DNA from: Saccostrea echinata
Taxonomy: Eukaryota
Reading direction: 5' to 3'
NCBI RefSeq assembly: GCF_033153115.1
Contig: NW_026889753.1
Location: 9,920,001-9,984,000, forward strand
Length of the DNA stretch: 64,000 nucleotides
A program made the position numbers and the translations under genes. Below the pieces are notes generated by a model that made no database searches, had not been told where the DNA came from, and saw only the letters and a list, made by a program, of their open reading frames with translations. Positions 1,665-49,766 of this stretch are shown one piece after another. Position 1 is the stretch's first letter, and each line of letters opens with the position of its first letter.

Positions 1665-2696
1665 TTCAGGAAAACTGGTTTGGTTTTGTTTACAGCCATA
1701 TTGCTTACCTTTTCGTCTTTACATCTTTAAACTTGATTGTTAAGAGTTTTACCTCATTATTTTGGAGCTATTTCAACATATTTAACTTTAAACACAACGC
1801 GAAGTCAAACACATGTTGCCGGTTCTCCATTTGTAAACAATCTATGTAACTTCCTGTATTGTGTATTCACATACCTTTGTAAAGTCCGCTCTGATTGGCT
1901 TATCGGCGATATGTGAATCCAATAGTTCTATTTGATATAAACTTATCGATTCATTGATTTTCTATTGTTCAATAAAGTATAAAAGGACAGTCTTGTCCTT
2001 TTCTTTTTGGAGTTGTCTGGCAGAACACTCCGTACAGGTACTGTTTTGAACAGCACCTAACTCTTTTTCTGCTACTTTCACTTTACAGTGTATTTTGATA
2101 ACTGAGTCATTGACTCATTCGGAATTTCTTTCCTAAAAAGTTTATTTTCTGAAATAAATTAAATTTCTTATTTGAAATAAATATTTTTGAATTATCTTCC
2201 TTCTTAAAATTATTTAGATATTTTTTGAACATTTTTTGACTTTAGGAGAGCCGAGCAATTATTTATTACAATTTATATCTGGAAAATATTTACATTTTCC
2301 AATTTATTTTGGTGCTTTTTGATAAAGTATTCATATTCATATTTTGAGTATATTTCTATATAAATATTTCATATTATACAATTTTTCCTTTCTGAGAGTT
2401 TCTCTTCTCAATTTTGTGTACATTATTCATATTTTTCCCTCATTTTGTTATTGCATCTTGTTATCATTTTTGTTATCACCTTTACCCATCAAAATCATTT
2501 TTGTTATATAAAATACTGAAATTTAAACCTGACTTATGTTGTTCTTCTCTGTCATAAGCACATCTAGTGATACGATTGTGGTATGTAAGAGAATCATTGC
2601 TCCTGCGCAAAGCTAAGGTATAATCTAGCACGGCCATACGTTTAATAGATTAGTTATCTTGGCTTGCGGGGGCATGAAACCCTCTTCCTTACTACA
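1665..2696 (+). repeat. 5' LTR (~1030 bp)
   Basis: Matches 8990-9361 + 10519-11016 + 12615-12755. Ends ...ctaca. Starts ttcagg versus tgtagg in the 3' copy. CCAAT boxes at ~1894 and ~1919, TATAAAA at 1978-1984. Confidence 0.92.
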
Positions 2697-2699
2697 TTT

Positions 2700-2717
2700 T
2701 GGTGCCGTGACCAGGAT
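2700..2717 (+). promoter_or_regulatory. Primer binding site, tRNA-His-like
   Basis: TGGTGCCGTGACCAGGAT immediately after the LTR end. It differs at 2 positions from TGGTGCCGTGACTCGGAT, the complement of the tRNA-His 3' end. Confidence 0.8.
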
Positions 2718-2729
2718 GTGCTTCTAATT

Positions 2730-4377
2730 ATGACAGGGAGACAACAAGAAATCAGAAAAATGTTCAGGGATGAACTCTTTGTTGATGGGTCTTTACTAGG
2801 TGCTTCAGGAGGGAAAGATTCAAGAAACAGTAAATCTCCTGAAATCCCCTGAAAAAGTCAAACAACAGAATGAAATATTTGAACTTACAGAAACCATTAA
2901 AAATTTGGAAAAGCGCTTACAAGATGCTTTGAAAAGTTCAGAAACTAGTAGAAAAGAAGAAAAGTATTCAGAAACAAAACCAAAAGAACACTTAGATTTT
3001 CATTATGAAGCAAAATATAAACCTTTTGAGTCTCATCTTCACAGTACACCAAAGTTCAGTGACTTCAATAGACCATTATTTTCAGAGTCAAGGGACGTTA
3101 GATCATCATATGATCCAAGGTTTGGGCTAACACAGTCTAGAAACAGAGACAGAGATGAAATGTTTGGTCAAAGAGTAGGGAACACTGGATCAGTATCTGA
3201 TCCATCCTTCTTAGACACATTTGGTAGAGTGGGGTATAGAAATGAAAACCAGGGCCCACGATTAGGGAATGCTGGATCTGCATTTGATCCAACCTTAAAT
3301 GTCTCCTCTCACTTGGGAAGATCTGGGTACACAAATCCAAGGCATGTCACATTTCAAGCTTCAAGCCCAGCATTCTATTTTACCCCAGGTCATACAAACA
3401 GCACACAGACAGATTTTCAATCCAACTGGTATCCCAGTTATTCTGTGCCTACACAAACATATCCACCTACCATGCACAAAGTAGTTGAACCAGACAAGTT
3501 TGACCCTAACACCACAGACTGGACAGACTACATGGCATATTTTGAACACATTGCACCCTGGAATAGGTGGAATGATATTGAGAAAGCACAACGCTTAATC
3601 ATGTGTGAGAGGGTCTGCACAAAAAGTGCTTAGTGAGTTAACATATCATCAGTGTACAGATTACACCACTCTCACACAAATACTCAACCAAAGATTCAAT
3701 CCACAAGAGAGAGAGAGATAGTTGCTCGTTGTGAGTTTAGAAATAGAAAAAGAGAGACAGGTGAGACAGTGGCACAATATTGGTATGCCCTTAAAAGGTT
3801 GGCACAGCGTGCTTTTCCCAAAGAGCCTAATTCTTCTCTAGAAATCCATGTTATCGTCCAATACCTTAATGGATTGGGACATCATGAACTAAAAAAACAC
3901 ATTACTTTTAAACATCCTCAAACCTTAGAGCAGGCCATTTCCTATGCCTCAGAGTTTGAAGCTATTGAAGGGCCTCTAGACAAAATCAGAAAGCCCATAT
4001 GTAGTCCTGAAACTGAAAATTGTGAAAAAGTTCTAGCATTTGAACAAAAGAGCAAGAAAGATGAAGAGACAGAGGATTTAGAGAGTATGTTTTCCAGACT
4101 GTTAGATGAAAAGTTGGAGAAATTATTTAAAGGGAAATTAGAGAGTGAGAGTTACAAGAACAAACCATTTCCTCAAATCCCAAATCAGTGCAAACCATTC
4201 AATAGAGAAAGAGAGAATGATGAGAGAAAATTTGTACGAAACATTGTGTGTGATTATTGTGGGAAAGTTGGCCATGTAGAAAGTAGGTATTACTTCAAAC
4301 AAAGGGATGAGGGTAAATCTCAGAAGAGTACAGAAAAAGTCAGTGCCCTCTCTCACGGTGAAAATTCGGAAAACTAG
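2730..4377 (+). pseudogene. gag: gag (frameshifted)
   Basis: ORFs 2800-3633 and 3652-4377 contain PDKFD...DW.DY..YFE, ETVAQY...L..LA..AFP and P.TLEQAI..A capsid-like motifs, plus a decayed CCHC knuckle CDYCGKVGHVESRY. Confidence 0.85.
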
Positions 4378-4391
4378 ACAGGGCTGGTCTT

Positions 4392-7300
4392 ATGACCGTG
4401 AGCTCAGCCCCTCAATTAGAAAATGAACAAGAAAATCGGTCATCTACACTCAGTGTGAATGATACAGTCAATGATGATAAACCTGCAGAACACAGGGTTA
4501 AAGTGTCAGTAGGCAATGCCTCTAAAGCTCTCTTGTATTTGAGGGTTAATGTTAAACAAAGACTTCTTAATATGTTAATAGACACGGGGAGCCCTTTTTC
4601 CAACATCACTAAAGAACTTTTTGAAATTATTGGTGTTGAGCCCAATAAAACAGATATCAATCTCACCTCTCCAGATGGAAGGGAGATAACTGTTCATGGA
4701 AAAATCAATGTTGATATGGAAATTATGGGAAAGAAAATTTGTCAAGAATTCATTGTTGCAAATTTAGACAATGTAAATATTTTGGGGATGGATTTCCTAA
4801 AATACATTAATGCATCAATCAACATAAAGAAGCAGGTTTTGAAAACATCTTTGGGCCAATTTAAGCTGTTTAAGAGTAACACAAACAGCAGTTTGACGAG
4901 ACTGTATCAGTTCCTCCTAAATCAGAATAGGTTTTTCAAGCATGGGTTGGGACTGATAGAACCTACTAAAAGCCTGTCAAGTAAGGGTCTTTTTCTGGCC
5001 AGGTCTATCTGTGACCCAAGTTTGGGGGCAGTGACTGTATCAGTCCTGAACATCAGAGAGAAGCCTGTAACCCTTGAAAGAGAGAGTATTGTTGGCACCA
5101 TAAGGAGTGTGAGTGAGATAATTAAAGATCCCAGTACATGCACAGATTCTCACACTGACAACTGCACAGACCAAGATTTTCCAGAACATTTAAAACCTCT
5201 GATAGATACAGTTCACCGAAGTTTGACCGAAGAACAACAACTCAGACTCAAACATCTCATTCTTAAATACAAGGACATTTTTCATGAACCTGGAGAAAAG
5301 TTAGGTCAGACCAACATAACAACACACAAAATCAAAACAGGTGAACATCCACCAATCAAAATGCCACTCAGAAGGTACCCAATGGTTCAATCTAATTAAA
5401 ATTAGATGTTCCGAATCCGCTACCGCTTCTCAAACATCTAACAACATCCCATTCGGGGTCACGTCAGAGCGACCTTTTGATTACCCAATGAAATCGCCGT
5501 CGTCGAAATCTTGGCTTATAGTTCGGATGCGTTTCTTTTTTTACTGCCAAACCTAAACGCCCGAGGAGTTTCGTAGTAAACAAAATATGCATGGTTGGTA
5601 AAGACCGTGCTATATGAATGTGACGTGCGGGATATATAGTAGTTTGTGCATTTTTGTTTGCGTTAATCAGGTAAGAATACCAGATTGGCGGACTATAATT
5701 CAATTTATACCAAAATTACTTTAATTCAACGTAAGACAGTCTACTGAGCATCAATAATGTAAAGATGTAGCCGTGAAACTAATTTTAGAATTGTATACAG
5801 AAGGTTGAATCTGATTGACCAAAATTTTTATGTTTATTCATATTTGAAAGGTCGCTCTGACGTGACCCCGAATGGGATGTTGTTAGATGTTTGAGAAGCG
5901 GTAGCGGATTCGGAATATCTAATTTTAATTAGATTGCCAATGGTTCAGAAACAAATCATAGACAAAGAAATTGATAAAATGTTAGAAGATAAAATTATTG
6001 AACCCAGCATTAGCCCATGGTCCGCAAACATATGTTTAGTTAAAAAGAAAGGTGGCACTCCAAGATTTTGCATAGATTTTAGAAAATTAAATTCTGTAAC
6101 ACAAAAAGATGCTTACCCTCTTCCTCGCATTGACGAGACATTAGATACCCTTTCAGGTCAAGCATGGTTTTGTACTCTTGAACTTGCCAGTGGCTATTGG
6201 CAGATCAAGATGAAATAAGAAATCAGAAAATTCATCTTATGAACTTTTAGCTCTACAGGAATCTGATTGTCATCTGGATTGTAATTCTGAACAAACCAAT
6301 CCGACATCAGATATCATTAAAAATCCTCCATAATCTGTAGATCAGTTCAGTAATGCTAAACATTTGGACTGTGATCAGTCTAGCAACCCTTTTAGCTTTT
6401 TCCCATTGGATTTCCATGAAAATCTTCACAATCATGATGAAGAGCCAAACTGGTTAGGTAGTTTTCAGGACAATGAAATTAAAGAGATGCAAAGAAATGA
6501 TTCCATCATTGGCCCTTTCATTGAATATAAATTACAACATCAAAATAAACCAATCAAATCAGAAATGTCAGGGTTTTCAAGAGAAACAAAAATTTTGTTT
6601 TCCCAGACTGAGTGGGACATACTTGAATTCCATAATGAAATCCTTTATCGCAAATACTATAGACAGGATTGTTTGCAAATGGTAGCCCCTACAAAAATTC
6701 AGAGAGACATTTTTGAAAATCTTCATGTTAAAAGGATTGCAGGCCAGTTTGGCATTGAAAGAACTGTTTCATCAATTAAACGTAGGTTTTATTGGCCTAG
6801 AATGGATGAATGTATGAAAAGATGGTGTGAGTCGTGTGACCTTTGTGCTAGATGTAAGCCAGGTCCCGGGGTTGGAAATTTCCCCCTTCAGCAATTTAAG
6901 GTGGGCGCCCCTTTGCAATGCATAGCAATAGATATTGTTGGATCATTACCTGAAACTGTCAATGGAAATTTATACATCATGGTAATAGGGAACTACTATA
7001 CCAAATGGAAAGAAGCCTTTCCAATCCGAGATCATACCGCCCTTACTGTTGCTGATAAATTAGTTACAGAATTCATAGTTCGTTTTGGTTGTCCAGATCA
7101 GATACATACAGACCAGGGGAGAGAATTTGAATCCCATCTTTTCAAACATGTTTGTAATCTTTTAGACATTGAAAAAACAAGAACTACCCCTTATCACCCT
7201 CAATCAGATGGTTTTGTAGAAAGATTCAACAGAATACTTCGACAAATGCTTAGAATTTTTGTTTCAGAAAATATTGACGACTGGGATGATTTACTCCCAT

Positions 7301-7953
7301 TTCTACTCATGGATTATCGTGCTACTGAACACAAGAGCAGTAAATATTCCCCAAATCTCTTGATGTTTGGCAGAGAAATAAACTGTCCGTTGGATGTAAT
7401 AGTAGGGAAGCCACCAAATGCTCCCAATGAAGAATGCCCTATTAAATATGTTGAGTGGTTGAAATATTCTCTTTTAAATGCTTTTGAAAAAGCAAATGTA
7501 AATTTAAAACAATCCGCAAAAAGACAGAAAACTGACCATGATAAAAACGCAAAATTTGGGGAAATTAGTGTGGGAAAATAGGTTTGGAGATGGTATCCTC
7601 CCAGTGCAAATGAAAAGTTAGGGTTAGGTTGGACAGGACCATATTTCATTATCGATAAAATTTCAGATTTGACATATAAAATTCAGAAATCCCCTAATTC
7701 AGAACCAATTTCAGCACACATAGACCATCTAAAACCGTATTTGGGTTTAACAACACCTTCAGCCTGGAATACCCATGACATTAGTGTGGAAGTTTCCACT
7801 CCAACATCAGAAACATCAGAACCAAATACAACTGTACACAATGACTCCTATTCTGACCCTCCTGAAATTGCACTTACCCCACAACAAACTACAGAATTAA
7901 GAAGTAGGGCAGGGCGACTAATAAAGCCAAAGCAAATATTTAGTCCATCTTAA
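4392..7953 (+). pseudogene. pol: pol remnants: aspartic protease, N-terminal RT, integrase; RT C-half and RNase H deleted
   Basis: Protease LIDTGS. RT motifs SPWSANICLVKKK, RFCIDFRKLN, YPLPRID and LASGYWQI. Integrase FYWP..CDLC, IAID, HTDQG and YHPQSDGFVE, followed by a GPY motif. No YxDD or RNase H between ~6218 and 6364. Confidence 0.9.
5388..5936. mobile_element. MITE with ~90 bp TIRs and 9 bp TSD (Mutator-like) inserted in pol
   Basis: TSD CCAATGGTT at 5379-5387 and 5937-5945. TIR caatctaattaaaattagat... Removing it restores RRYPMVQKQIID. Confidence 0.9.
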
Positions 7954-8123
7954 TTAAAGTTCATCATGTTCATGACTGTTTTAACTATGTTGGTTTTTAT
8001 TTTAATCATCACCTAGATACATGTATAATGGATTTGAACAATTTCCAAATACATGTTACATATGTATATAATTAATGTACTATGTCTAATGTCATTGAAT
8101 GTATCTTTATTTTTAAGTTATAG

Positions 8124-8710
8124 ATGGATGTATTACAGCTAGATGTTCCCATGGAGGAGATCCATACTTTGGATGATGATTTAAGACCAGAGTGGAATTC
8201 TGAGGGAATGACCTGCCCTGTGCCTAAGTGTTCCAATAGTAACAAATTTAATACCTTCAGGAGTTTCATGGCTCATTGGACGAAAGTGCATGTTTCCGTA
8301 AAAAACTTAATAAACGTTCTGAATGTAAAAAACTTATCCAAACAAAACATAAGAAGCAACATGAACGCCAACATTCTACAAAAATCGAATTTACTGTAAT
8401 TACCGTCCCTAACAAAGAATACATCGATTCAGAACTAATTCTTCCTCCAAAATTTTCCAAAATTCAAAACATGCCTGAATCTCCAAGAAAAATTGCACAA
8501 CGGAAAAGAAAATATGAAGCAGAGAAAGTCCTTGCAAACACAACCATTTTTTCCGAAAATTTAGATCCAGATTTCAACAATTCCAGAGACGAAAAGCTAT
8601 ATTTCCTTGAAACCAACAACAAAACAATTGTCACCTATCACAAAAACCCACGATGGTACAAAGATGCACCGGTGGAACCCCCAAGAACCAGGCAATCAAT
8701 AAGATATTAA
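8124..8710 (+). pseudogene. Accessory ORF3 of the Gypsy element: C2H2 zinc-finger protein (~195 aa if one A is restored at ~8300-8304)
   Basis: CPVPKC...F.....F..HW...H finger in ORF 8124-8399. Continues in ORF 8276-8710 with (R/C)SECKK...HERQH and a basic RKIAQRKRK stretch. Located between IN and the PPT. Confidence 0.7.
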
Positions 8711-8976
8711 ACATTATTAAGTTGAAGAGACTTTGATGTATTTGAAGTATATTGTTGTTATTTATATACCCATGCAAGTTTTATGATAATGATAATCACT
8801 CATTTTTCTTTTGTTGTAAATAAATACCCGAGTGATTCATGATATCAATTTGATGCAATATTTTTGTATGACTAATATGTAAATGACGTTGAATTTTTTA
8901 TCGGTCATTGTATCATGTATTGTATTTTTTCCTTTGGTGATTATTTAACACACAAATGTTTACACTTTTGTTCCCC

Positions 8977-8989
8977 AAGGAGGGAAGAG
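8977..8989 (+). promoter_or_regulatory. Polypurine tract
   Basis: aaggagggaagag immediately before the TG of the 3' LTR. Confidence 0.8.
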
Positions 8990-9361
8990 TGTAGGAAAAC
9001 TGGTTTTGTTTACAACCAAATTGCTTACCTTTTCATCTTTACATCTTTAAACTTGATTGTTAAGAGTTTTTATCTCATTAATTTGGTGCTATTTCAACAT
9101 TTTTAACTTTAAACACAACGCGAAGTCAAACACACGTTGCCGGTTCTCCATTTGTAAACAATCTATGTAACTTCCTGTGTTGTGTATTCACATACCTTTG
9201 TAAAGTCCGCTCTGATTGGCTAATCGGCATTATGTTAATCCAATAGTTCTGTTTGATATAAACTTATCGATTCATTGATTTTCTATTGTTCAATAAAGTA
9301 TAAAAGGACAGTCTTGTCCTTTTCTTTTTGGAGTTGTCTGGCAGAACACTCCGTACAGGTA

Positions 9362-10516
9362 CAGGAAAAACACCTCCATAACCTTATACATGGGCGCAGA
9401 CATTTTGGACACCCGAAGTTGTGCGGAGAAGAAAATGCTACGTGATTGGTCATTAAGAGAAAAGACTTGTTATGTATCTGACTTATCTCAGCGACATCCG
9501 TAGAGAATAAAAATTTTGGTCTGGTATCTCTACGGATCTCAGACCAGTATCACATAATCTCATTCGGGGTTTCGTTCCCGGAATTCGACCGCTTGTTTCG
9601 ATTACTACGGGCTGAAATGAATTAGCTGTCCGCTTCAAATTTTTGCTTTGGACATCCTTTTAATTCCCTATCACCATAAAACTTTCGTTTCTTACCTCTG
9701 AAAGATTTAAATCCATCAAAATATAAAGTTGTTGATTTTTCATACAATAAGCTATTCGTTTAAACCTCCGATGCTGAAGAGTTCCAGCAATATTCTGCTT
9801 CAAATACTTCGTACTATGGTTCATTTCTATAGGAAAAATTAGTAGAACGAAGTATTTGAAGCAGACTATTGCTGGAACTCTTCAGCATCGGAGGTTTAGA
9901 CGAATAGCTTATTGTATGAAAAATCAACAACTTTTATTACATGTTGATGGATTTAAACCTTTCAGAGGTAAGAAACGAAAGTTTTATGGTGATAGGGAAT
10001 TAAAAGGATGTCCAAAGCAAAATGTTGAAGCGGACAGCTAATTCATTTCAACCCGTATTAATCGAAACAAGCGGTCGAAGTACGGGCACGAAAACCCCGA
10101 ATGAGATTATGTGATACTGGTCTGAGATCCGTAGAGATATCAGACCAAAATTTTTATTCTCTACGGATCTCGCTGAGATTAGTATTTGACAAGTGAAATA
10201 AAGGTGATAAAAATCTCATATCAAGACTTAGGCTTTTTTGAGATATATAGGAGTTACAGGTAAAAGTTTGAAGGGAGGGGTGCACTTTGGTTAGAGATTT
10301 TTTATTTGGTGCTGAACGCACCTAGTTGTAAACAAATGGAATTTGAAAGTAAAAGTGCAACGGCACGGTATATTTTTTCTGGCATGTTTTGTTTTGCAAG
10401 ATCTCGAACTTTCACGGCAAGAAAGTCATTTGCCCAAAATTGAATATATGAATCAGTGACAGTGGCTCAACTTTGTATGGAAGTCTATGGGAAAACATTT
10501 GGTGGTGTTTGTCCTA
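9362..10516. mobile_element. TA-flanked MITE, copy 2 (inverted relative to 1108-1562)
   Basis: Reverse complement of 1108-1562. TA duplication at 9360-61 and 10517-18. Absent from the 5' LTR (empty site ggta|ctgtt). Confidence 0.85.
9483..10181. mobile_element. ~700 bp foldback/palindromic element with 9 bp TSD (MULE/Foldback-like)
   Basis: Arms ~9483-9815 and ~9843-10181 are near-perfect reverse complements. Flanked by gtatctgac / gtatttgac. Confidence 0.85.
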
Positions 10517-11016
10517 TACTGTTTCAGCACCTAACTCTTTTTCTGCTACTTTCACTTTACAGTGTATTTTGATAACTGAGTCATTGACTCATTCGGAATT
10601 TCTTTCCTAAAAAGTTTATTTTCTGAAATAAATTAAATTTCTTATTTGGAATAAATATTTTTGAATTATCTTTCCTCTAAAAATTATTTAGATATTTTTT
10701 GAACATTTTTTGACTTTAGGAGAGCCGGGAAATTATTTATTACAATTTATATCTGGAAAATATTTACATTTTCCAATTTATTTTGGTGCTTTTTGATAAA
10801 GTATTCATATTTTGAGAATAATATTATACAATTTTTTCCTTTCTGAGAGTTTCTTTTCTCAGTTTCGTGTACATTATTCATATTTTCCCCTCATTTTTGT
10901 CATTTTTGTTATTGCATCTTGTTATCATTTTTGTTATCATCTTTACACATCAAAATCATTTTTGTTATATAAAATACTGAAATTTAAACTTGACTTATGT
11001 TGTTCTTCTCTGTCAT

Positions 11017-12603
11017 GGTTAAATGATTATCTTACTAGTCGATCACAACAGCTTAAAATAAAATCATCAAGTTCTTCAGTGGGAAGAACCAAAGCAAGAG
11101 TTCCCCAGGGTTCTGTTCTTGGACCTTTACTTTTTCTAGTTTATATAAATGATCTGCCATGTGGACTCTTGGGTCTCTCTAGACTATTTGCAGATGACAC
11201 ATCTGTGTCAAACTCCTCTAAAAACTTGCAGGACTTAGAAAGATTTACTAATTATGATTTAGAAAAAATTAACGAATGGTCAAAAAACTGGCTTGTAAAA
11301 TTTAATCCTGATAAGACTAAAATATTAATATTTGGTTGTCAAGAAGATGAAGTATCCAATCTACGGTTCAAGTTTGACAATCAAGAAATAGTTCCATCTT
11401 CTACTCACTGTCATCTTGGACTTACGTTTTCAAATTCTGGCAAATGGACAAATCACATCGATAACATTATTAAAAAGACTTCAAAAGAAATTGCTGTTCT
11501 TCGTAAATTAAAATTATCATTGAATCGTGATTTTTTTAACTAAGATGTATATTACATTTATTAGGCCACTATTTGAATATGCATCAGAAGTATGGGATAA
11601 CATTTCCGCAGCTGACTGTGATAGGCTGGAGAAATTACAATTAGAAGCTGCGCGTATTGTCACTGGTCTCCCTATTTATGCTCCTCGTAAGTCTCTGTAT
11701 TTCGAAACAGGATGGGAAACACTTGCTTATAGACGAGAAAAGAGAAAATTATGTTTAATGAATAAAATAAAATATGGCCTCGCGCCAGACTATTTATTAA
11801 ATCTATTACTTCCTGATGTCTCATAAACTACCCATTATGATTTACGTAATCGCAATAATATTTCTATTCCCCAATGTAAAACAAACTTATTAAAAAATTC
11901 GTTCATTCCATCTACAATATCAGTATGGAATGCTTTACCTACAGAGATTAGAAACCTTGATACTGTAAATGCTTTCAAAAAAAAGACTCTTTGAAGGTGA
12001 ATCTCCCCAAAAGTATTTTTCTTATGGTGATAAAAAAACAAACTCAATTTTAACAAGAATGAGACACAATGTAAGCATCCTTAAGTCAGATTTATTTAAG
12101 GTTAGGCTTTCAGATAACACTCAGTGTTCTTGTGGACATATTAATGAAAACACTGAACACTTCTTCCTGTACTGTAAAAATTATGCTGAAATTAGAACAG
12201 AATTATTTCACACCGTATAAAATAACAAAGGAGCAATAGACCTTGACATAATTCTATTTGGAGACCCAAATTTGGGTCAACAAAATAATATCAACATTGT
12301 TAAAGCCGTACATAAATATATTAAAAAATCGAAAAGATTTTTATGAATAACCAGCGTAACCATTCTGTATCTTTTACAACCCCTCCTTCTTTCTTCGATT
12401 CTCTCTTTGCACTCCCATTCCCTTCCTTTCTTATTTCTCTGCACCCTTTTCTTTCTTCTTTATTTTTTTGTATTGTATATTTGTTGCTTGTACATCACGT
12501 GTATATAATTTTATTTTGTTTGTGTTGGAGAGGACAATCTAAGTTGGTATAACTTGTGTCCAATCCCATTGATTGTGTTCAATAAAATATGTTTAAATAA
12601 AAA
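11017..12603 (+). mobile_element. 5'-truncated CR1/L2-group LINE (RT C-terminal part and 3' UTR)
   Basis: VPQGSVLGPLLFLVYINDL and LFADD motifs, frameshifted downstream ORFs, AATAAA plus A-rich tail. 11 bp TSD TTCTCTGTCAT at 11006-11016 and 12604-12614. Confidence 0.9.
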
Positions 12604-12767
12604 TTCTCTGTCATAAGCACATCTAGTGATACGATTGTGGTATGTAAGAGAATCATTGCTCCTGCGCAAAGCTAAGGTATAATCTAGCACGGCCATACGT
12701 TTAATAGATTAGTTATCTGGGCTTGCGGGGACGTGAAACCCTCTTCCTTACTACACAACAAAGAATC

Positions 12768-34816: not shown

Positions 34817-36886
34817 TTAATATTTGATTGCGGATATCACTCTATTCCAAAACATTTCCTTCCCCGATTTTTCATTGGTCCACTCTATGAAGGTGGTTGT
34901 CTTCAGCAGAACATGTAAAGAGTTGGTCATATTTTTTGTAAGGATATTTTCCAAAATAATTACAATAACCATCTCCTTTTCCTTATTTATTGTTCGCAAC
35001 TGTGCCAGCATGGTTTCGAATCGACACCAATGGCTCTGTGCAAAGCTGTTAGACAAAATGATAAGAATCTTTCGGCTTCTATGCATGGTGTCGGTTATAT
35101 TATCTACGATAAGTTTTCCCACTTGGAAATCTCTGTCATGTAGACAAAGTTTGAATTTTGCTTCCTTCTCTAGTTTTGGTACAATTTCTGAAATAACCCA
35201 TACTCTATCATTAGAATTATAAGCTACAAAAACATCGAAGGCAAATTCATCGCCTCCTAATATTTCATAACCTCGTCTTTTGGCACGCAAGAGGTATAAA
35301 TAGTACTTAATATGCCAGCGTTTTTGGTATAATACACACGAAACTATAACGATGACAATCACTGCAAAGGATACCGATACAGCCACCAGAATATATGGAT
35401 TGAAAGGGTGACAAAATTGGAAACTTAGATGGAAATCAGCGAGATTCCGTCCTTTCCATTCCTGTGGGAGATTGCATACATACTCTTTTGGCCAACCGAG
35501 AAGCTGATGTGAATGATGTTGAATCCACCCTCGAAACCAAACTAGATTACATGTACACAAGAAGGGATTTCCTTTCAAGCCAATTTGTTCAATATGATCT
35601 GGAAGGTTTGTTTTAGTCAAAGTAGTTATCAGATTGTAATCTAAAAGAAGAGTCTTCAAATTTACTGATGTCGATGAAAATATCCCCAAGTGGGATTCAT
35701 TTATAAAACAGTTTTGTAAGGAAAGCTTTTTCAGGTTTGGCATGATGGTGAAGAGGGTTTTCGGGAAGGTTGATACAGCGGTACCTTTTAATGTAAGTTC
35801 CTGAAGTTTCGTGAGAGGCCGAAAAAGCTTGAACAATTTCCAGTCTAGGTTATGTGACGCGTTAAGCTGTATCCCAGTCATATCTAGTATTTTCAAATTA
35901 CGACAATGTTGGAAAATATTTACAGCATGACTGATAATATTCATTTTGTTTGCCATGTATAAAAACGTCAAAGAAGAACTATTGAAAGAATATTCATTAA
36001 CTGTTACATCCGGTGCAAGGTTTTCGAGTGACAAATATTGAAGATTAGGTAAGCCATTTATGAAGTTCTTAACGATGGTCTGAATTTTGTTATATCCAAG
36101 CGTTAGATTTCGAAGATTTGGCAAGCATTCTTTCATGAAATTTCTTTTCTTTATGACGGATATTAGATTATCACTCAGGTGAAGAACTTTAAGCTTCGGG
36201 AAACTTGGTTTGCCACTAAAGCAGAATTTTGGAACTAATAGTAATTTGTTTTTCCTCAGATTCAGAACTTCCATATTCGGCATCACTCTCTTGAATTCAA
36301 CAAATGAAATTTCGTTGTTCGTCAATGAAATCAGTTGCATCTGTTGGGGTAACGACAACAAGTTTCCACTGAAATTGTAAAGCACATTGTCGTCTAAGTA
36401 AATTCGTCTTAATTTTTTCAACTGTACAAAAAAGTCATCTGACATATTAGCCATATGCAGCTGTGTGAGATAGAGTTCCTGTATGACCCCAGTCTGTAAT
36501 CCATGAACTACTTTCTTAAGTTTCTTTGCATGTAAATTGTTGTCACTAAGGTCCAGGGATAGTAGGTGAGGAAGTTTCCGGAAAGCACGTTTATTCACTT
36601 GATTAATGCTGTTCCTTCTTAAGACAAGTTTGGTAAGGTGTAGATGGGATATATTATCGAAAACGTTATCTCTCATGTGGTGCAGAGAATTACGACTAAA
36701 TGTGAGAGAGGTGATATTTCTAGGAAGAGGAGGAATGTAATCCAGTTGTTTGCCATGTCCCTCACAGATTGCTTCGTTCTTCTGACACACACAAACATCA
36801 GGACATGAAATATTCCCCAGTATGGACAAAAAACTCACTGGTAGAAGATGTAATAAAAACAGACAAAACTTCGCATTCAAACGCAT
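34817..36886 (-). CDS. TLR: Toll-like receptor A (single exon, single-cysteine-cluster type), 689 aa
   Basis: Signal peptide, LRRNT CPDVCVC, many LxxLxLxxN repeats, LRRCT NPFLCTC, a TM helix, and a TIR domain (FDVFVAY, LHDRDFQVG, FW). Confidence 0.95.
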   Translation of the reverse strand: MRLNAKFCLFLLHLLPVSFLSILGNISCPDVCVCQKNEAICEGHGKQLDYIPPLPRNITSLTFSRNSLHHMRDNVFDNISHLHLTKLVLRRNSINQVNKRAFRKLPHLLSLDLSDNNLHAKKLKKVVHGLQTGVIQELYLTQLHMANMSDDFFVQLKKLRRIYLDDNVLYNFSGNLLSLPQQMQLISLTNNEISFVEFKRVMPNMEVLNLRKNKLLLVPKFCFSGKPSFPKLKVLHLSDNLISVIKKRNFMKECLPNLRNLTLGYNKIQTIVKNFINGLPNLQYLSLENLAPDVTVNEYSFNSSSLTFLYMANKMNIISHAVNIFQHCRNLKILDMTGIQLNASHNLDWKLFKLFRPLTKLQELTLKGTAVSTFPKTLFTIMPNLKKLSLQNCFINESHLGIFSSTSVNLKTLLLDYNLITTLTKTNLPDHIEQIGLKGNPFLCTCNLVWFRGWIQHHSHQLLGWPKEYVCNLPQEWKGRNLADFHLSFQFCHPFNPYILVAVSVSFAVIVIVIVSCVLYQKRWHIKYYLYLLRAKRRGYEILGGDEFAFDVFVAYNSNDRVWVISEIVPKLEKEAKFKLCLHDRDFQVGKLIVDNITDTMHRSRKILIILSNSFAQSHWCRFETMLAQLRTINKEKEMVIVIILENILTKNMTNSLHVLLKTTTFIEWTNEKSGKEMFWNRVISAIKY

Positions 36887-37446
36887 CTTGAAGTAAGCTA
36901 ATACGTTGACAAAACATTTTCTAAATACTTTTTATCAGGAAATATTTTTGCGTAGTCTTAAGTATTTTCCGGGTCTTGCATACAGCTTTATTACTATTAT
37001 TATTTTTGCGACAATATCTTTAAAATATATTTGACATACTTATAAAGATCATTAAATTCATATTGTATACATATATGCATTTCTAAAAATAATCATTATA
37101 TGAGAACATTTTTTTGGAAAATTATAGAAACATTTCAGATCATTTTTTTCTTAGTTGTATGTCATTGTGAATCAAATTGTAATTTGATGGCGAAAATGAA
37201 TCTGCTTCAAAATACAAGTAGGTCTTTTCCTGTTTTTCCCCTTTGTCTATTCTTTTACGTAAGTACTGAGCTTAAGGAAAACGTGAAGGAGGGCTTTTCA
37301 TATTATGTAAGGATATTCTATCAAGTGACAATCCTTCAAAAAAAAAAATGTAAACTTGTATAAAAGAGATATGTACGAAGTGATTTGCAATGTATAAGAT
37401 TTCGTAAGTGTCAAGAGGTGAGGACGTTACCAGGAAACAGGTTGAT

Positions 37447-38428: not shown

Positions 38429-39644
38429 TACGGAAGCCCATTTAGGACCTATCAAAAAATATTTTAGAATTCGATATAACGAATTGTTGAATTTGTTATA
38501 ACAAAGAGCTAGGTTCACTTTATGCATAAAATGGCCCTGTTCTTATATCAATTACTTGATTATCACTTTCTGCCCCATGTCATATATCAAAATAAAGTAG
38601 AGACTTAGCACTCTCATCTCCTATAACAAGATTTCTTTTGGAGAATTCGGGTATTGGAAAACAGGCTTTGTGAAAATGCAATGTTCTTGAATTTTGCAGA
38701 AAACAGGCATATTTGACTACATTCAGCAAATAATTAAAATAAGAGCACAGTCCTCGATCCAAAAATTTAAATATGTTTTATGATCTTAAGAAACAGACCT
38801 TTCATTATGTAATTGCATATTTTGGATCAGAGGTTGTGCTCTATATGAAATATTGAAAAAATACTCCAACTTTTGGCCATTTTTAAAGGAATTTACAGGA
38901 TATGATAAAAATGACGCATTTTATGACGTCATAATGCATTGACTAGAAAGAAAATTACGTCATGTTCAATAGATAAACGGTCACCAAGGGTCCAAGTAAT
39001 AAATTCTGCATTTTCAACCAAAACTGAGCAGTTTCGATTTTTCAGAAATTCTCAGGGCCAAAAAAGGCCCTAAGTGGCTCTTGCTCTTTAATTCGTTATA
39101 ACAGTTTATTTGAATTCGTTATAACGAATTTAATCTGTTATAACAAATTTGTTGAATTCATTATAACGAATTCAAAAATTGGTTATAACGAATTAAATTC
39201 GTTTAAACAAATTCTAAAATTTGTTATAACAAATTAAATTCGTTTAAACGAATTCTAAAATTTGTTATAACAAATTAAATTCGTTTGAACGAATTCTAAA
39301 ATTTGTTACAACGAATTAAATTCGTTTAATCAAATTCAGGGCCTGTACAATCAGGACCTGTAGAAAAATATAAATTTAATTCGTTATAACAAATTAAAGA
39401 ATTCATTTTAACGAATTAAATTCGTTATAACAAGTTTTAGAATTCATTATAACGAATTTAATTCGTTATAACAAAATTTTCAATTCGTTATAACGAATTC
39501 AACAAATTTGTTATAACAGATTAAATTCGTTATAACGAATTCAAAGAAACTGTTATAACGAATTAAATTCGTTATAACAAATTTGACAATTCGTTAAATC
39601 GAATTCAAAAATATTTTTTGATAGGTCCTAAATGGGCTTCCGTA
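38429..39644. mobile_element. IS3EU-like MITE filled with palindromic minisatellite, with a nested insert at ~38505-39087
   Basis: TACGG...CCGTA termini, 6 bp TSD CTTCTC, and internal aattcgttataacgaatt units. Confidence 0.7.
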
Positions 39645-39722
39645 CTTCTCGAATGTGTTGTTATACACTACTGAAGTTTCTCCTTTACTGCTGTTAATAA
39701 TTTTGTGATGAGTAAAGAATGA

Positions 39723-40343
39723 TATGGAAGCCCATTTAGGACCTATCAAAAATATTTTTGAATTCGATATAACGAATTGTTGAAATTGATGTAACGAATT
39801 AAATTCGCTATATCAGTTTCTTTGAATTCGTTATAACAATTTAATTTGTTATAACAACTTTGTTGAATTTGTTATAACGAATTCCAAAAATTGTTATGAC
39901 GAATTAAACTCGATTTAACGAATTTTAAAACTTGTTATAACGAATTAAATTCGTAAAAACGAATTCTTTAATACGTTATTATGAATTAAATTCGTTTTAA
40001 TAAATTGGACAATTCGTTACAATGAATTCATTTATATTTTACTATAGACCATAATTGTTGAATTTGAATAAACGGATTTAATTCGTTAAAACACATTTTA
40101 CAATTTGTTTAAACGAATTTAATTTGTTGTAACAAATTAAATAAATTGTTAAAACGAAGTTAATCTGTTTTAACTAATTTTTGAATTCTCTATAACGAAT
40201 TCAACAAATTTGTTGTAACAAATTTAAATTCGTTATATAATGAACTCAAAAAATTGTTATAACGATTTTAATTCGTCATAACAAATTCGACAATTCGTCC
40301 TATCGAATTAAAAAAAAAGATAGGTCCTAAATGGGCTTCCGTA
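39723..40343. mobile_element. Second, more diverged copy of the same palindromic-minisatellite MITE
   Basis: TATGGAAGCCCATTTAGGACCTATC ... GATAGGTCCTAAATGGGCTTCCGTA. Confidence 0.75.
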
Positions 40344-43996: not shown

Positions 43997-46114
43997 TTAA
44001 GATTTAACGGCGGCGACTAATCTGTTCCAAAACATTTCTTTCCCTGATTTTTCGTTGGTCCACTCTATGAAAGTGATTGTTTTCAGAAGAACATGTAAGG
44101 AATTGGTCATGTTTTTTGTGAGGATGTTCTCTAAAATAACCACAATCACGGTCTCCTTTCCATTATTTATTAACCTTAGTTGCGCCAACATAGTTTCGAA
44201 CCGACACCAATGGCTCTGTGCAAAGCTGTTAGAGAGAATGATCAGGACTTTTCGACTTCTATGCATGGTATCGGTGATATTGTCTACAATTAGTTTACCC
44301 ACTTGGAAATCTCTGTCATGCAAGCAGAGTTTTAAGTTTTCTTCTTTTTCAAGTTTTGGTATCAGTTCTGAAATAACCCATATTCTGTCATTTGAATTGT
44401 AGGCCAGGAAAACGTCATATGCAAATTCATCTCCAGCTAGGATTTCATAACCACGTCTTTTGGCACGTAAGAGATACAAATAGTATTTAATGTGCCAGCG
44501 TTTTTGGTAAAATAAGCAAGACAAACAAGTGATGAATGTTCCTCCAAACGAAATGGAAATAGCCAATATGATGTATGGACTGAGGGGATGACAAAATAAA
44601 TAACTTAAATGAAAGTCTGCTAAACGTCTTCCCCTCCATTCTTGTGGAAGATGACATTTGTAACCAGAGGGCCATCGCAAAAGTTGTTGTGAATTGTGTC
44701 CGATCCAATCTCGAAACCAAACTAGATCGCAAGTGCACATGAAAGGATTTTTTCTCAAACTAATGTTTTTAATTTCGTTAGGAATATTTGACTCGTTTAT
44801 GGTCGTTATCAAATTGTGATCTAAATTGAGGACTTCTAGAGCTGATGATTTAAATATTTCTAAGTGTGATTCATTGAAAAAACAATTTTGTAAGTTGATA
44901 GACGTCAAATTTGGCATGATAGAGAATAAGGCCTTTGGGAAAGTTGACAGAGATGTGCTCTTTAAGGTTAGACTTGTAAGCTTGGTAAGAGGTCTAAGGA
45001 GATCAAGAACTTTTCTGTCTTGATCACGAGTAACGCTAAACTGTATTCCAGTCATATCTAGTATCTTCAAACTACGAGAATGGTTAAAAATATTCTTATT
45101 GTGCTTCAAAATCTTGAATTTATTTGCCATATATAGGGTCTTCAGAGAGGTACTATTAAAGGAGAGGTCACTAAATGTTACCGAATGATCTAAATTTGCG
45201 ACTGATAAGTACTGCAATGTAGATAAATCTGCAATCAGGTTTTCAGGTACAAATTTGATTTTGTTATGTCCCAGCTTCAGACTCTTGAGGTTTGGCAAGC
45301 ACTGTCCATGGAAGTTTTTTCTAGTTACATCATATAAAAAGTTGTCACTAAGATCAAGGACTTTAAGTAATGGAAAACTTGGACGTTGCTTATGCGGAAG
45401 ACAAAATTTTGGGACTTCCGTTAATTTGTTTTCCTTCAAAATAAGAATTTCCAAGTTTGGCATCACTTTCTTAAATTTAACAATTGAAATGCGGTTGTTT
45501 TTTAAAGAAATCTTTTTCATTGATTTAGGTAAAGAATATAAATTTCCACTGAAGTTATGAATTAAATTGTCATCCAAGTGCAATCTCTGCAAAGTTTTTA
45601 TATCTGAGAATGAGTGGTCTGATATATTAGCCAAGAGCATTTTAGTAAGATAAATATCTTGTATTGCACTGTCTTTTAATCCATAAACCACTCTCCTAAT
45701 TTCTGAGGCATTTAGATTTGTGTTTTTACTCAGGTCAAGAAAGTGTAAACGAGGAAGCTCCCGAAAAGCGTTTTTATCGACTTCATGAATCCGGTTGTCT
45801 CGCAAAATAAGTTTCGTTATGTTAAGTTTGGATACGTTGTAAAACGTGTCATTTCTCAAACGAGGTAAAAAATTTCCACAGAATCTTAGAGTTATGATGT
45901 TTGCTGGAAGAGGAGGAATGTGCTGCAATCCTTTCCCACGATGCACACATGCTGCTTCATTGTTCCGACACGCACACAACTTCGGACACGCAATATTTTC
46001 TTGCACCGACGCAACTTCAGTTTGTAATGATATAAGATTGATAAGAATTAGGGTCCTGACCATTTTGAAATTAAAACAATCTAAAATTCCTTTTAGTCTT
46101 AGCAGTGACTGCAT
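43997..46114 (-). CDS. TLR: Toll-like receptor B (single exon), up to 705 aa; likely start at 46063 (MVRTLILI...)
   Basis: LRRNT CPKLCAC, LRRs, LRRCT NPFMCTC, a TM helix, and a TIR domain nearly identical to TLR-A. Confidence 0.95.
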   Translation of the reverse strand: MQSLLRLKGILDCFNFKMVRTLILINLISLQTEVASVQENIACPKLCACRNNEAACVHRGKGLQHIPPLPANIITLRFCGNFLPRLRNDTFYNVSKLNITKLILRDNRIHEVDKNAFRELPRLHFLDLSKNTNLNASEIRRVVYGLKDSAIQDIYLTKMLLANISDHSFSDIKTLQRLHLDDNLIHNFSGNLYSLPKSMKKISLKNNRISIVKFKKVMPNLEILILKENKLTEVPKFCLPHKQRPSFPLLKVLDLSDNFLYDVTRKNFHGQCLPNLKSLKLGHNKIKFVPENLIADLSTLQYLSVANLDHSVTFSDLSFNSTSLKTLYMANKFKILKHNKNIFNHSRSLKILDMTGIQFSVTRDQDRKVLDLLRPLTKLTSLTLKSTSLSTFPKALFSIMPNLTSINLQNCFFNESHLEIFKSSALEVLNLDHNLITTINESNIPNEIKNISLRKNPFMCTCDLVWFRDWIGHNSQQLLRWPSGYKCHLPQEWRGRRLADFHLSYLFCHPLSPYIILAISISFGGTFITCLSCLFYQKRWHIKYYLYLLRAKRRGYEILAGDEFAYDVFLAYNSNDRIWVISELIPKLEKEENLKLCLHDRDFQVGKLIVDNITDTMHRSRKVLIILSNSFAQSHWCRFETMLAQLRLINNGKETVIVVILENILTKNMTNSLHVLLKTITFIEWTNEKSGKEMFWNRLVAAVKS

Positions 46115-47239
46115 AGTATTTTAATATTTTTTTCGCAGGGAAAAAACCTATATCATTAGAGATCGTTTAGTTTTGTAAGCCGATTGTTTCTTTCATATGC
46201 TATAAGTATACAGATTTTAATGGTCAAGAGTGAACATATTCATCACCTTTTCAATTATCAACTTCACAAGCACGATTTGTTTACAGGAAGTTCAAATCGT
46301 ATAAATCGTTGTATTGATAATCCTCCAATACATGAAAGTTGAAAGTAAACAAGGGCTCTCTATTTCAGAACTGATATTGGCAAAATTATGAAAAAAATGT
46401 TATTGAATCTTAATGCCATGTCTTTATATACACTTGAACAAGGAGTGCTTCCTTAAACTGAAACGACAGTTCTCTACCCCTTGTATAGTTATATTAATTA
46501 ATCAACCACTTTTACTAAGCTGTTTTGAACACATGTATAGACTTTACTCATATCTTTAATACTTAAATTCTACATCTCAAAAAAAAACTTTCCGTCAATA
46601 TTTTAATTTTTTCCTGTGTTACAAGATTTTTTTTATAGTACTTCCAAATGAGAATTGATAAATATATATTATATGTTCCGTGATTTGGCTTTTAACGACA
46701 TGAAGTAAAAATACATCACGTATGTAAAAATGATAATTTTTCAAGAAACTAATTTCGACGCCCTGTCAAGAAAACGTGCTTTACATTAACATGCTGTTGG
46801 ATAAAGATTTCAAGTATACATATATTTATTATCGAAACACATGTCTAAGAAAAACTAATCGTAAAAAGCCACGTTTATGTTTCCCATTATTGTTGTAAAT
46901 GGTCTTTCGATTTGTTCAAACTGTTCAAACTTTGTTTTACTTCTGTATACACTATACTAGCTTGTAAAATTTCTTTTATGCCTTTGCTCTGTCCGTCCGT
47001 CTGTTCGTTAGCTGTCTGTCTGTCTGTTTATCCACAGAAAACTTTAACCTGCCCCTAAGGTTTGATTGGCTCGAGCTATGGCTTTCATGTTTAATAAGCC
47101 TATTCCTTGTGACAAGACCTTTCCTTGGGTACCAGCATATTTTGACTCCTGTGCCTGAAGTTCACCCACTTTTGCAAAATATAACCAAACTTAACCTTGG
47201 CCGTAACATGTGAAAGATTGATCCTTTCCCTATGGATAT

Positions 47240-48861
47240 AATGACAATGTCAATAGTGTTAGAAATCTTTCCAGTTCACAGTGTAAATGTGATAGGACTT
47301 TTTAACCATACACAGAGACGTTTGCGTAGTCATGGGCATCGGTCTTACAATAAAACCTTTAATACACGATGTCTCTTTTGATTCATTACTACCTTACGTA
47401 AATCAACAGTTAGGTCTACATCATATTCGCACCAAACTTTACTCTGTTCCTTTGAAACTTTTAAATAGTCTTCTTGAAAAAGTCAAGGAAAGTCCATTTT
47501 TTGATTCCTCGACACCAGAATATAGGCTCGGATCTGTGATTATGGATATTGCAAATCATAGGCTTTTTACCCACGTTTTACTGAAGAAAATGCAGCTAAA
47601 ACAATCCGTTTTTCCTGAACTTCAATATGCCAACAAAGGAATTGACGTAGTTAATATAAGTAATATTCTTAATTACAAAAGGGTCCAGTCTTGTATTCCA
47701 CCATATTTCAAGTTAAAGACTACACCTTGTATTTCCTACAAATATACATCGACTATTGCGTCCAAACTTTTTAATTACAAGAAAACTTTACAAGGCCTGG
47801 ATATCGAATATCTGAAACATAATCCTCCATCGTGTTTATGTTCTTCTTCACCCTATAACTATAGTATTGCTGGACACGTCATTACTGGTGACGTAAATAT
47901 AGTAAATAATGAGGACCTTCGATCACTTATTTTAAAAGGTCCTAAATATAGGGAACCCCGATCCTTCAATTGGCGTCGGAATTTCATAAATATTATGGAT
48001 TCTGTAGAGGATTACGCCAGGCGATGGGCCAGACATGAAAAAGAAGACCTTGACACTTTGTCAGAATGGATTAAATGTATCAGATGTATGTTAAAATCGC
48101 GCATTAAAAGATTGAGAGGCAATGTGAGAACCATCTATCCTTCTGTATTCAATAATCCAGAAATGAAAAAAGAATTAGATAGATTACATGATCAGTACGT
48201 ACTGGTCCCTGCAGACAAAGCAGGTAACAACATTGTCTTTGTTTGTAAGGCTCATTATATATTAAATGTATTTTAGAGGAACTTGGATTTAATTCTTCAA
48301 GTGGTAATCCAACTTATACTCATAGTTCCCTTTCTAAGGAAGACATTCTTCAAAATCATATGTCAGTTTTGAATATTTTTCATATTCCAAAAAACCAAAA
48401 TGAATTTGAATTACCATATCTATATTGGATTCCGAAACTTCATGAAAATCCTTACAAACAAAGATACATAACGGGTTCCAGTAAATGTTCTACCAAGTCT
48501 CTTTCTTTACTCCTCACAAAGATATTAACAGTAGTAAAGGAGAAACTTCAAGAGTACTGTGCAACAATATATTTGAGAAGTGGTGTAAATCAGATGTGGA
48601 TACTGAAAAATTCCAAGGAACTTTTGGAACATTTGAAATCAGAAAATTTTACCAAAATCAAAAACATAAAAACTTACGACTTTTCAACTTTATATACAAC
48701 TATTCCCCACGATAAATTAAAGTCCAGACTTTCTGACATCGATGACAGCTGCTTTTTCAATAAAAATGGAACTCGTAAATTTACTTACCTTATCATTGGT
48801 CATTTGCAAATTATTTTGTTTAAAAAACATTCTGATTGTACACACAAGTACTCTGAAGTTA
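47240..48861 (+). mobile_element. Penelope-like retroelement RT fragment (frameshifted, 3' truncated)
   Basis: Motifs KGPKYREP, VPADKAGNN, LPYLYWIPKLH and YDFSTLYTTIPH. Confidence 0.8.
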
Positions 48862-49766
48862 TCTCCATATTTCATTAGAGTGTTAAGCTGTATCCAAACT
48901 GTTGACAGAATATTTATTACCTATTACACCCGGTGCTAGATTTTCGATTGAGATTTATTGAACATTAGATAAGCCATTTTAAGGTTCCGACCTGAGTTTT
49001 GTTACATTCGAGCGCCAGATATAGAAGCTTTAGAAAGCATTCTATCAAGAAATTTCTTATAAGATTATCAAGATCTAGGAAATTTGGCTTGCAACTTTAG
49101 CAAAATTTTGGAACTAAAAGTAATTTGTATTTTCTTAAATTAAGAACTCCCATATTCGACATCACTCTTTTGATCTGACAAATACAAATGAAATTTCGTT
49201 TTGTTTTTTTTAACGTTTCTTTCGAGAATTTTTCACTGAAATTTCGCTGTTTGTCAATAAAAGCAATTGCATCTGTTCAAGCAACAATAACAATTCTCTC
49301 CTGAAATTGTAAAGGACATTTTAATCCAAGAAAAATATGTCGTAATCTGCAGGAAAAAGTCATCCGGCATATCATCTATGTGGAAAGGAGTGAGATATAC
49401 TTCTCTGAAAAAATCACTTTGTAATTTATGTATCACTTTTTAAATTTCCTTGCAAGCAGCAATTAGCTCTCCTTTAACGTCCAGAGATAGTAAATGAGGA
49501 AGCTTCCGGAAAACAAATTTATTCACTTGACCAAGTAATATGGTTCTTTCTCAAGACAGGGTTTGTCAGTTGTAGATTGGATATATTCTGACAAATATTT
49601 TCTCTCATGTGGATAAGAAAATTAAGCATAATCGTTTGCCTCATAATCTGCTCTGTTATTCTGAAGCACACAAACACTAGGATATGAAATATTTCCAAGT
49701 ATTGACGAAAACCTCATTTGTAGAAATAACAGAGAGTAGAGCCTAATACGTGTATCTATGTGCATT
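48862..49766 (-). pseudogene. Old TLR pseudogene (N-terminal LRR part only)
   Basis: Colinear nucleotide similarity to TLR-A ~35860-36886 (e.g. ccatattcgacatcactct, ccagagatagtaaatgaggaagcttccggaa, atgaaatatttccaagtat) with stops and indels. Small SINE-tail insert at ~49200. Confidence 0.75.

Follow-up and report, generated by a model that had tools for sequence, protein, structure and literature searches.

The element described here lies within a 64,000-nucleotide stretch of the Saccostrea echinata genome (hereafter, the window), in which positions 1665 to 12755 are occupied by a decayed copy of a Ty3/Gypsy LTR retrotransposon. Its assignment rests on the presence of two LTRs, a target site duplication (TSD), a PBS and a polypurine tract (PPT), and on the order of the Pfam domains in its pol, which is the Gypsy order of protease, RT and integrase. 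All of its features are on the plus strand. The two 4-bp copies of the TSD (CAAC) match each other and are located at 1661-1664 and 12756-12759. The 5′ LTR (1665-2696; about 1030 nt) contains a TATA-like box near 1978 and precedes a PBS (2700-2717) that begins TGGTGCC and is presumably of the tRNA-His type; an identical PBS start is carried by L041, L048, L057, L058, L080 and L082. The gag gene (2730-4377), evident from ORFs and a weak Ty3_capsid match, is broken by frameshifts. The pol gene (4362-7953; PR-RT-[RH]-IN) is interrupted by an insertion (approximately 5390-5936) and a stop (7579-7581), and has lost about 1 kb at 6212/6213. Downstream are a third open reading frame, ORF3 (8124-8710), a PPT (8977-8989), and a 3′ LTR (8990-12755) that is interrupted twice by inserted DNA, at about 9363-10516 and 11017-12603.

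Several other mobile or repetitive sequences are found in the window. The insertion in the RT region (5388-5936) is a non-coding, MITE-like sequence of about 550 bp with 90-nt TIRs that are 99% complementary and a short flanking direct repeat. The first insertion in the 3′ LTR (9363-10516) has nested inverted repeats, and one of its ends also occurs upstream in inverted form at 1111-1442. The second (11017-12603) is a LINE-like RT fragment with an 11-bp direct repeat on each side. Farther downstream, three single-exon ORFs of about 700 aa with leucine-rich repeats are clustered on the minus strand (34820-36931, 44000-46120 and 55940-57985, the third split over frames) and appear by eye to be Toll-like-receptor-like. 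Tandem arrays of a 41-bp unit in both orientations (39086-40338) are typical of a repeat-bearing DNA element, and adjacent ORFs of 326 and 209 aa (47296-48875) resemble, again by eye, a retroelement RT remnant.

ORF3 encodes an acidic N-terminus, two C2H2 fingers, an N..Y[IV]DP motif and a basic helix, and is damaged in the window copy by a frameshift at the A-run at 8300-8305 and by a substituted finger-2 Cys. The first-pass annotation had proposed that this frame is an accessory gene of a Gypsy lineage, and its description of the region proved accurate. A branch-like CTAAT (8086-8090) and a T-rich tract lead to a TAG (8121-8123) directly before the ATG at 8124, and the stop is at 8708-8710. 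The single-base repair that it proposed is likewise borne out, as the frames at 8124-8399 (91 aa) and 8252-8710 (152 aa) meet at 8300-8305 and a sister copy has a natural ORF of 197 aa. This sister (G000:C16; L002/L041), which is 94% identical in DNA to the window copy, was found among the 10 matches of a DNA search of the genome. It has an open pol of 1352 aa, followed by the natural ORF3 upstream of the PPT. The Arg thought to mark a decayed first Cys of finger 2 in the window copy is indeed matched by Cys in the sister. Pieces of the sister LTRs are 99.6% and 100% identical, as in a young copy, and its gag is frameshifted, so that the sister may have moved in trans. A frameshift in a GA-repeat of gag (about 3706-3719 in the window) is common to the window copy and the sister; L043 is in frame there. 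The natural 197-aa ORF3 of the sister (P0001) was used as the basis for all protein work.

Within one Gypsy clade, ORF3 constitutes a conserved accessory gene that is under purifying selection. The window and sister copies differ by 24 synonymous and 13 non-synonymous changes over 193 codons, and the resulting dN/dS of 0.13 (p 3e-9), as judged from codon substitutions, rules out a reading frame that is open by chance. Values of 0.10-0.20 were obtained for five informative pairs with measurable dS, and the frame is open in elements whose LTRs are 99.3-100% identical (L048, L055, L058 and L084). Intact copies between integrase and the PPT with dN/dS below 1, which had been suggested as a check of the proposal, therefore exist.

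The distribution of ORF3 also argues against a one-off capture, which is ruled out by its clade-wide presence under purifying selection. A search of the genome with P0001 gave 56 matches among 102 candidates, most at about 30% identity. An integrase query, for which 150 of 2360 candidates were scored, was supplemented with 80 further elements (44 closer and 36 more distant) that were all profile-scanned for ORF3. In a quick integrase tree of 97 rows, which excludes rows whose integrase match is short or has multiple stops, the form of ORF3 found in the window (type A) is present in 52 of the 61 elements of a single clade (SH-aLRT 100), and all 52 carriers fall inside this clade. Seven of the nine members that lack it come from one family and carry, or align like, a common decayed cassette at the ORF3 site. 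Another has a decayed cassette of its own, and the last (L140) is unexplained. Near-identical elements are also found in segmental or head-to-tail tandem repeats (L064, L066, L101 and L103, at a spacing of about 50 kb on G000:C9; L114/L115; L159).

Beyond this genome, 511 representatives match the ORF3 profile at E≤1e-10, and 90 of the best 150 matches are single-module proteins of 110-235 aa. Relatives are recorded under Magallana gigas, Pecten maximus and Sinanodonta woodiana (oyster, scallop and mussel), and some annotated mollusc ‘C2H2 genes’ (e.g., UniRef K1QAJ3 and K1QA12) may be transposon cargo. We found no description of ORF3 in a literature search whose scope did not extend to Repbase reports, subscription journals or supplements, which may annotate the ORF. 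The words ‘zinc’ and ‘ORF3’ are absent from the main text of a survey of mollusc LTR elements (PMC6238403), as are ‘zinc finger’, ‘C2H2’ and ‘BTB’ from the accessible text of a paper on metazoan errantiviruses (PMC13524379). Likewise, ORF3 is not described in the accessible portions of four other papers (PMC8220671, PMC10547256, PMC13547354 and PMC12477816).

The anatomy predicted for the ORF3 product is that of a nuclear nucleic-acid-binding protein and is unlike that of env. In an alignment of 15 ORF3 sequences, E12, G28, C31, C36, C65, C68 and P103 are invariant, and H51, W52, H80, H84 and N97 are nearly so. Among the zinc ligands, the four Cys are invariant, three His are near-invariant and the fourth His is less well kept, and the C-x2-4-C-x~12-H-x3-5-H spacing that identifies C2H2 fingers is conserved. 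Six of the 15 members match zf-C2H2 in Pfam, but weakly (best E 5e-4). The TGEKP-type linker that is canonical in Kruppel arrays is absent between the fingers of the aligned sequences. AlphaFold predicts a block at pLDDT 90-96 (residues 21-110) in which both finger helices are present, an extra strand beyond the fingers, and a helix (residues 123-141) that spans the basic RKRK stretch. The top structural neighbors of this model in VIA-align are all weak and are mostly DNA-bound C2H2 arrays (best Z 3.9); the two-finger peptide of Tramtrack aligns with Z 3.7 and rmsd 3.3 over 60 residues. No match was obtained at Z≥5 with VIA-align or at E≤0.001 with Foldseek, and the ESM Atlas returned unnamed clusters at 0.93, with recognition below threshold, that provide a lead only.

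Both fingers could be parsed in 78 of 99 ORF3 sequences, and position -1 of the finger-2 helix is R or K in 41 of these and position +6 is R in 34, as in DNA-binding fingers. Residues 1-22 carry a net charge of -4 to -11 in each of the 17 natural sequences. By hydropathy, none of these 17 has a membrane- or signal-like stretch (best 19-residue Kyte-Doolittle mean ≤0.98), and the value of 0.38 for the window copy agrees with the earlier view that the protein lacks a signal peptide or TM segment and is not env. No fusion-protein family of the F or gB type is among the matches listed for the 15 members, which cover 25 of 40 Pfam families, and ORF3 also departs from such proteins in its length and its predicted fold.

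How ORF3 is expressed is less clearly indicated. The spacer between pol and ORF3 contains 10-11 ATGs in the family of the window element, so ribosome scanning through it would be unlikely. With one element taken per family, 9 of 16 lineages have an acceptor-like site no more than 14 nt from the ORF3 ATG, compared with 71 of 466 control ATGs from the same non-coding DNA (p 2e-4, by a criterion set post hoc). Seven of the 16 lineages fail this criterion. Four of 24 listed sequencing runs were mapped to the sister element; the two that were raw poly(A) data each yielded 15 reads over 7.9 kb, with no junction. Donors at 2038 and 2618, both of which are within the 5′ LTR (1665-2696), had been proposed to feed ORF3, and this claim found no backing, as there were zero joins from them in the four runs, at very low depth.

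One contig on the sister copy skips 176 nt with GC..AG ends, and joins the last pol codons to an AAG that is six bases before the ATG. The equivalent segment of the window is a putative intron at 7932-8117 that contains the spacer ATGs and ends within a region (8086-8123) comprising the branch-like CTAAT, a pyrimidine tract and tandem AGs. The one join seen thus ends at the AAG (8115-8117) and not at the TAG (8121-8123). This join removes all 10 spacer ATGs and leaves pol out of frame with ORF3. GC..AG ends would arise by random deletion with a probability of about 0.005, and an acceptor-like end with a probability of 0.0007; the spacer is kept in all five copies that have both sides. Regardless, the join comes from a single contig whose RNA status is a guess, its GC donor is weak, and it is suggestive only. 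It could instead be a genomic deletion.

The donor at the end of pol is not conserved in other families. Only five of the 16 LTRs scanned have a donor-like motif no more than 110 nt from the likely promoter TATA box, and this count, made without a control, is not taken as support. What had seemed to be a conserved TATA within integrase is confined to the family of the window element, where it coincides with Tyr-Lys codons. In most copies of family B, the motif TTTCAGATAAGT is conserved about 20 nt after the pol stop (e.g., at oriented position 7345 of L055); it could represent either a further acceptor or a non-canonical donor. Overall, the reading of ORF3 as an accessory gene of a Gypsy lineage stands with respect to a lineage-wide, non-env C2H2 gene that is under purifying selection and has an acceptor-like site, but not with respect to splicing from the LTR donors. 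That the product is a transcription factor would be a prediction from its anatomy and from the copies that have moved without it.

ORF3 sequences behave as swappable cassettes because divergent versions sit in near-identical backbones in three families. When five full-length copies of family B are aligned to L055, identity per 200-nt segment is 92-100% in gag and pol, is for the most part 90-100% in the LTRs, and drops to 33-52% in ORF3. The cassette borders are near the start and stop codons. Six ORF3 groups emerge from clustering in family B (one is a broken copy and one a closer variant), and families C and D have two each. Members of different groups match at 93-99% in integrase DNA and at only 35-76% in ORF3 protein. 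Family B includes at least four deep types. Synonymous sites are saturated between deep types that have an integrase dS of 0.02-0.04, and non-synonymous divergence of ORF3 is far lower. ORF3 dS is at least three times that of integrase in 9 of 10 pairs, of which seven were chosen for differing ORF3 type; two of the three same-type pairs show this excess (0.23 vs 0.07 for the window copy and L041, and 0.23 vs 0.06 for L084 and L106). The simplest reading of these comparisons is that the ORF3 types would be old alleles that balancing selection maintains and template switching transfers from one backbone to another. The synonymous divergence might also stem from selection that acts on the RNA sequence.

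Co-variation of the LTRs with ORF3 type is mixed. In family B, a single LTR promoter region is common to at least four ORF3 types and there is no LTR co-variation, which disfavors a simple code that relates fingers to LTRs. In family C, a promoter-proximal LTR segment exists in two types, such that all seven aligned copies with type-1 ORF3 have type 1 and the single copy with type-2 ORF3 carries type 2. This linkage hinges on one type-2 copy and could reflect physical proximity. An 8/9-mer count, a method that short or degenerate motifs would escape, yielded neither ORF3-type-specific k-mers in the LTRs nor tandem motifs.

Some copies move without the gene. Three elements with different flanks (L107, L108 and L110), in which gag (446 aa) and pol (1306-1310 aa) are both open and the LTRs are 99.7-100% identical, nonetheless possess only a common decayed cassette of about 210 nt. 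The cassette is 90-99% alike among six copies, and its longest open stretch is 58 codons. These young copies were still inserted, and therefore ORF3 is dispensable in cis. The loss of a strongly selected gene from moving copies is what a trans-acting product predicts, and plain dispensability fits equally well. None of the collected ORF3s significantly matches the decayed cassette of family C, the best blastn E value being 0.27.

In sister clades, the same site is occupied by other ORFs, which we designated types B to E by eye and which cluster on the integrase tree. Type B ORFs have an MxxTKxTP start, two fingers, an acidic middle and TQT-like motifs, and six of seven have an acceptor. Type C combines fingers with a long tail, and type D has a BTB_2 domain that exceeds the Pfam cut-off in L147, L161 and L174 (three of 21 scanned ORFs). 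All 10 elements of types B to D that were checked are full-length with LTRs that are 99.1-100% identical and the ORF inside. The kinship of these ORFs to type A is limited to the fingers (probability 50 for the type B protein tested). The TQT-like motifs occur in the type B ORF3s of L142, L146, L149, L150, L157 and L158, and we take them to resemble sites for the dynein light chain LC8, as in the zinc-finger factor ASCIZ. The BTB_2 domains are of the KCTD type and are located in the third ORF of Gypsy elements (L147:4437-5018, L161:4314-5234 and L174:2875-3951), of which L147 and L161 were checked as young.

Type A modules also occur in giant proteins of 1000-4700 aa that contain up to 21 copies of the module without the acidic N-terminus. 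Several of their genes are on long contigs, two in S. woodiana have neighboring locus tags, and contigs are shared by three, which suggests host gene clusters. Tandem modules are present in P0012, P0013, P0014, P0017, P0019 and P0023, and the module order is common to P0012-P0014, as in orthologous host genes. No giant multi-module gene was found in the S. echinata genome, where 26 matches from 60 scored candidates exhibit zero tandem clustering. The module tree does not settle the direction of transfer between elements and giant proteins. The ORF3 module is a possible source of otherwise unexplained giant repeat proteins.

We favor, with a probability of roughly 0.45, the explanation that the ORF3 product acts in trans as an activator or anti-silencer of the transcription of its own element. 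The protein would be made from a spliced subgenomic RNA that lacks the ATG-rich spacer. It would then enter the nucleus, bind element DNA and switch on or de-silence transcription, much as is done by foamy-virus Tas or plant VANC. It is reasonable to speculate that the fingers bind nucleic acid and that the acidic N-terminus recruits host machinery. The versions of ORF3 might be old alleles that frequency-dependent selection preserves while elements and host silencing are in conflict, and they could be exchanged through template switching during reverse transcription.

Other functions deserve consideration. It seems unlikely that ORF3 is instead a protein-binding antagonist, whose fingers would grip a host restriction or small-RNA-pathway protein and whose flanks would route this target to inactivation or degradation, like Bet or Vif. 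Such a role would account for fast allelic turnover under constraint, which is typical of host-facing proteins, and would be in keeping with the conserved HW in finger 1, with the extra strand that the model places beyond the fingers, and with the occurrence of BTB_2, a domain known from Cullin-3 adaptors, at the same site in sister clades (3/21 scanned ORFs). However, finger 2 retains basic residues at base-contact positions, and the BTB types represent different ORFs, whose resemblance to type A is weak and limited to the fingers. Competition or copy-number control among elements, whereby each version represses or excludes elements of its own type like phage immunity types and rare types are favored, is a good deal less probable. 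The coexistence of at least four deep types in family B, the cassette borders near the start and stop codons, and null copies that could be escapers would all be explained, but family B has no type-specific cis sequence outside the cassette, and an acidic amphipathic N-terminus is a better fit to activation than to repression. We hold it to be just as improbable that ORF3 binds element RNA in a Rev- or Tat-like manner to promote export or elongation of the genomic transcript. C2H2 fingers can bind RNA, a target within the cassette would travel along with it and so explain the sharp borders, and a target just downstream of the TATA box would suit the differing LTR segment of family C, which is mostly downstream of that box. 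Against this idea, null copies without the cassette have retrotransposed.

The proximity of ORF3 to integrase raises the prospect of an integration-targeting tether that replaces a chromodomain, either as an integrase partner or as a spliced Pol fusion, and two gene models do fuse integrase to the module (P0080, which is Pecten maximus XP_033728208, and P0136). This role is nonetheless very unlikely. The fused records may be prediction artefacts, the only join seen has pol out of frame with ORF3, and ORF3 is a separate frame behind a stop in every element examined. Where the integrase end is intact, about 90-990 nt separate the pol stop from ORF3, and a chromovirus-type in-frame domain is absent. 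Finally, that ORF3 is a captured host fragment carried as a passive passenger is most improbable. The presence of the same module in tandem in giant proteins on long contigs and the mobility of null copies would be compatible with a passenger, but the selection tests on ORF3 have largely refuted this reading, given the dN/dS of 0.10-0.20, the clade-wide presence of the gene, and frames that have stayed open even where synonymous divergence is saturated.

Textbook accounts present the simple LTR retrotransposons of animals as gag and pol, to which env is the chief addition. A C2H2 accessory gene that is clade-wide and comes in deep allelic cassettes would provide animal retrotransposons with regulators of their own and a visible arms-race locus. 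Moreover, several ORF3 types and null alleles on a near-identical backbone constitute natural controls in one genome, because of which the manner in which animal LTR elements counter silencing becomes directly testable. A much broader proposal, which we consider rather doubtful as a whole, is that mollusc Gypsy elements are ‘complex’ retrotransposons, among which a broad superclade has a swappable 3′ regulator slot that can hold two-finger, finger-plus-TQT or finger-plus-BTB proteins. Each element would have its own sequence-specific activator or anti-silencer, balancing selection would maintain the alleles, as it does for self-incompatibility alleles or the immunity types of phages, and hosts would have domesticated the module as counter-defense arrays of 10-21 copies.

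Additional non-env ORFs are known from the LTR retrotransposons of other lineages, including the GDSL and DEDDy ORF3s of bdelloid rotifers (PMC5408684) and the aORFs of plants (PMC7264820). As far as the accessible text of these reports indicates, the extra ORFs are similarly family-wide, sense-oriented and located between pol and the 3′ LTR, and expected to derive from a spliced message. The mollusc cargo differs in being a tandem C2H2 module with deep interchangeable alleles, and the words ‘zinc’ and ‘finger’ occur zero times in the main text of the rotifer paper. Errantivirus env, as presented in the accessible text of PMC13524379, is also placed after integrase with an acceptor before its start. 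In contrast, the mollusc ORF3 has no signal peptide or TM segment by hydropathy, encodes 150-330 aa and has no fusion-protein family among its listed Pfam matches.

Foamy-virus Tas, described in the accessible part of PMC8670036 as a DNA-binding activator made from an internal promoter, is likewise a small regulatory gene at the 3′ end, and the join seen for ORF3 begins within the final part of pol, as would be expected of an internal transcript. However, the ORF3 element has no env and no Pfam match to the Tas family, its activator and internal promoter are putative, and the TATA-like site in integrase is not conserved. VANC proteins are anti-silencing factors of plant VANDAL DNA transposons that target tandem repeats (PMC5735166, accessible text). 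They share with ORF3 an origin in transposable elements, rapid diversification between related elements and, by our inference, action in trans. They differ in belonging to DNA transposons, homology to them was not seen, and the ORF3 elements have no tandem target repeats by a simple 8/9-mer count. Tandem C2H2 arrays of hosts, which repress transposable elements according to the accessible text of PMC10547256, also place fingers in the conflict between transposable elements and hosts, and giant proteins with 10-21 exact ORF3 modules recall such arrays. ORF3 itself is unlike them in that it is borne by the element, has two fingers without the canonical linker, and retains an acidic N-terminus that is missing from the giant-protein modules. 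ORF3 belongs to none of Tas, VANC or env, and beyond the first-pass annotation the analysis adds swappable cassettes, null copies, sister ORF3 types and giant repeat proteins.
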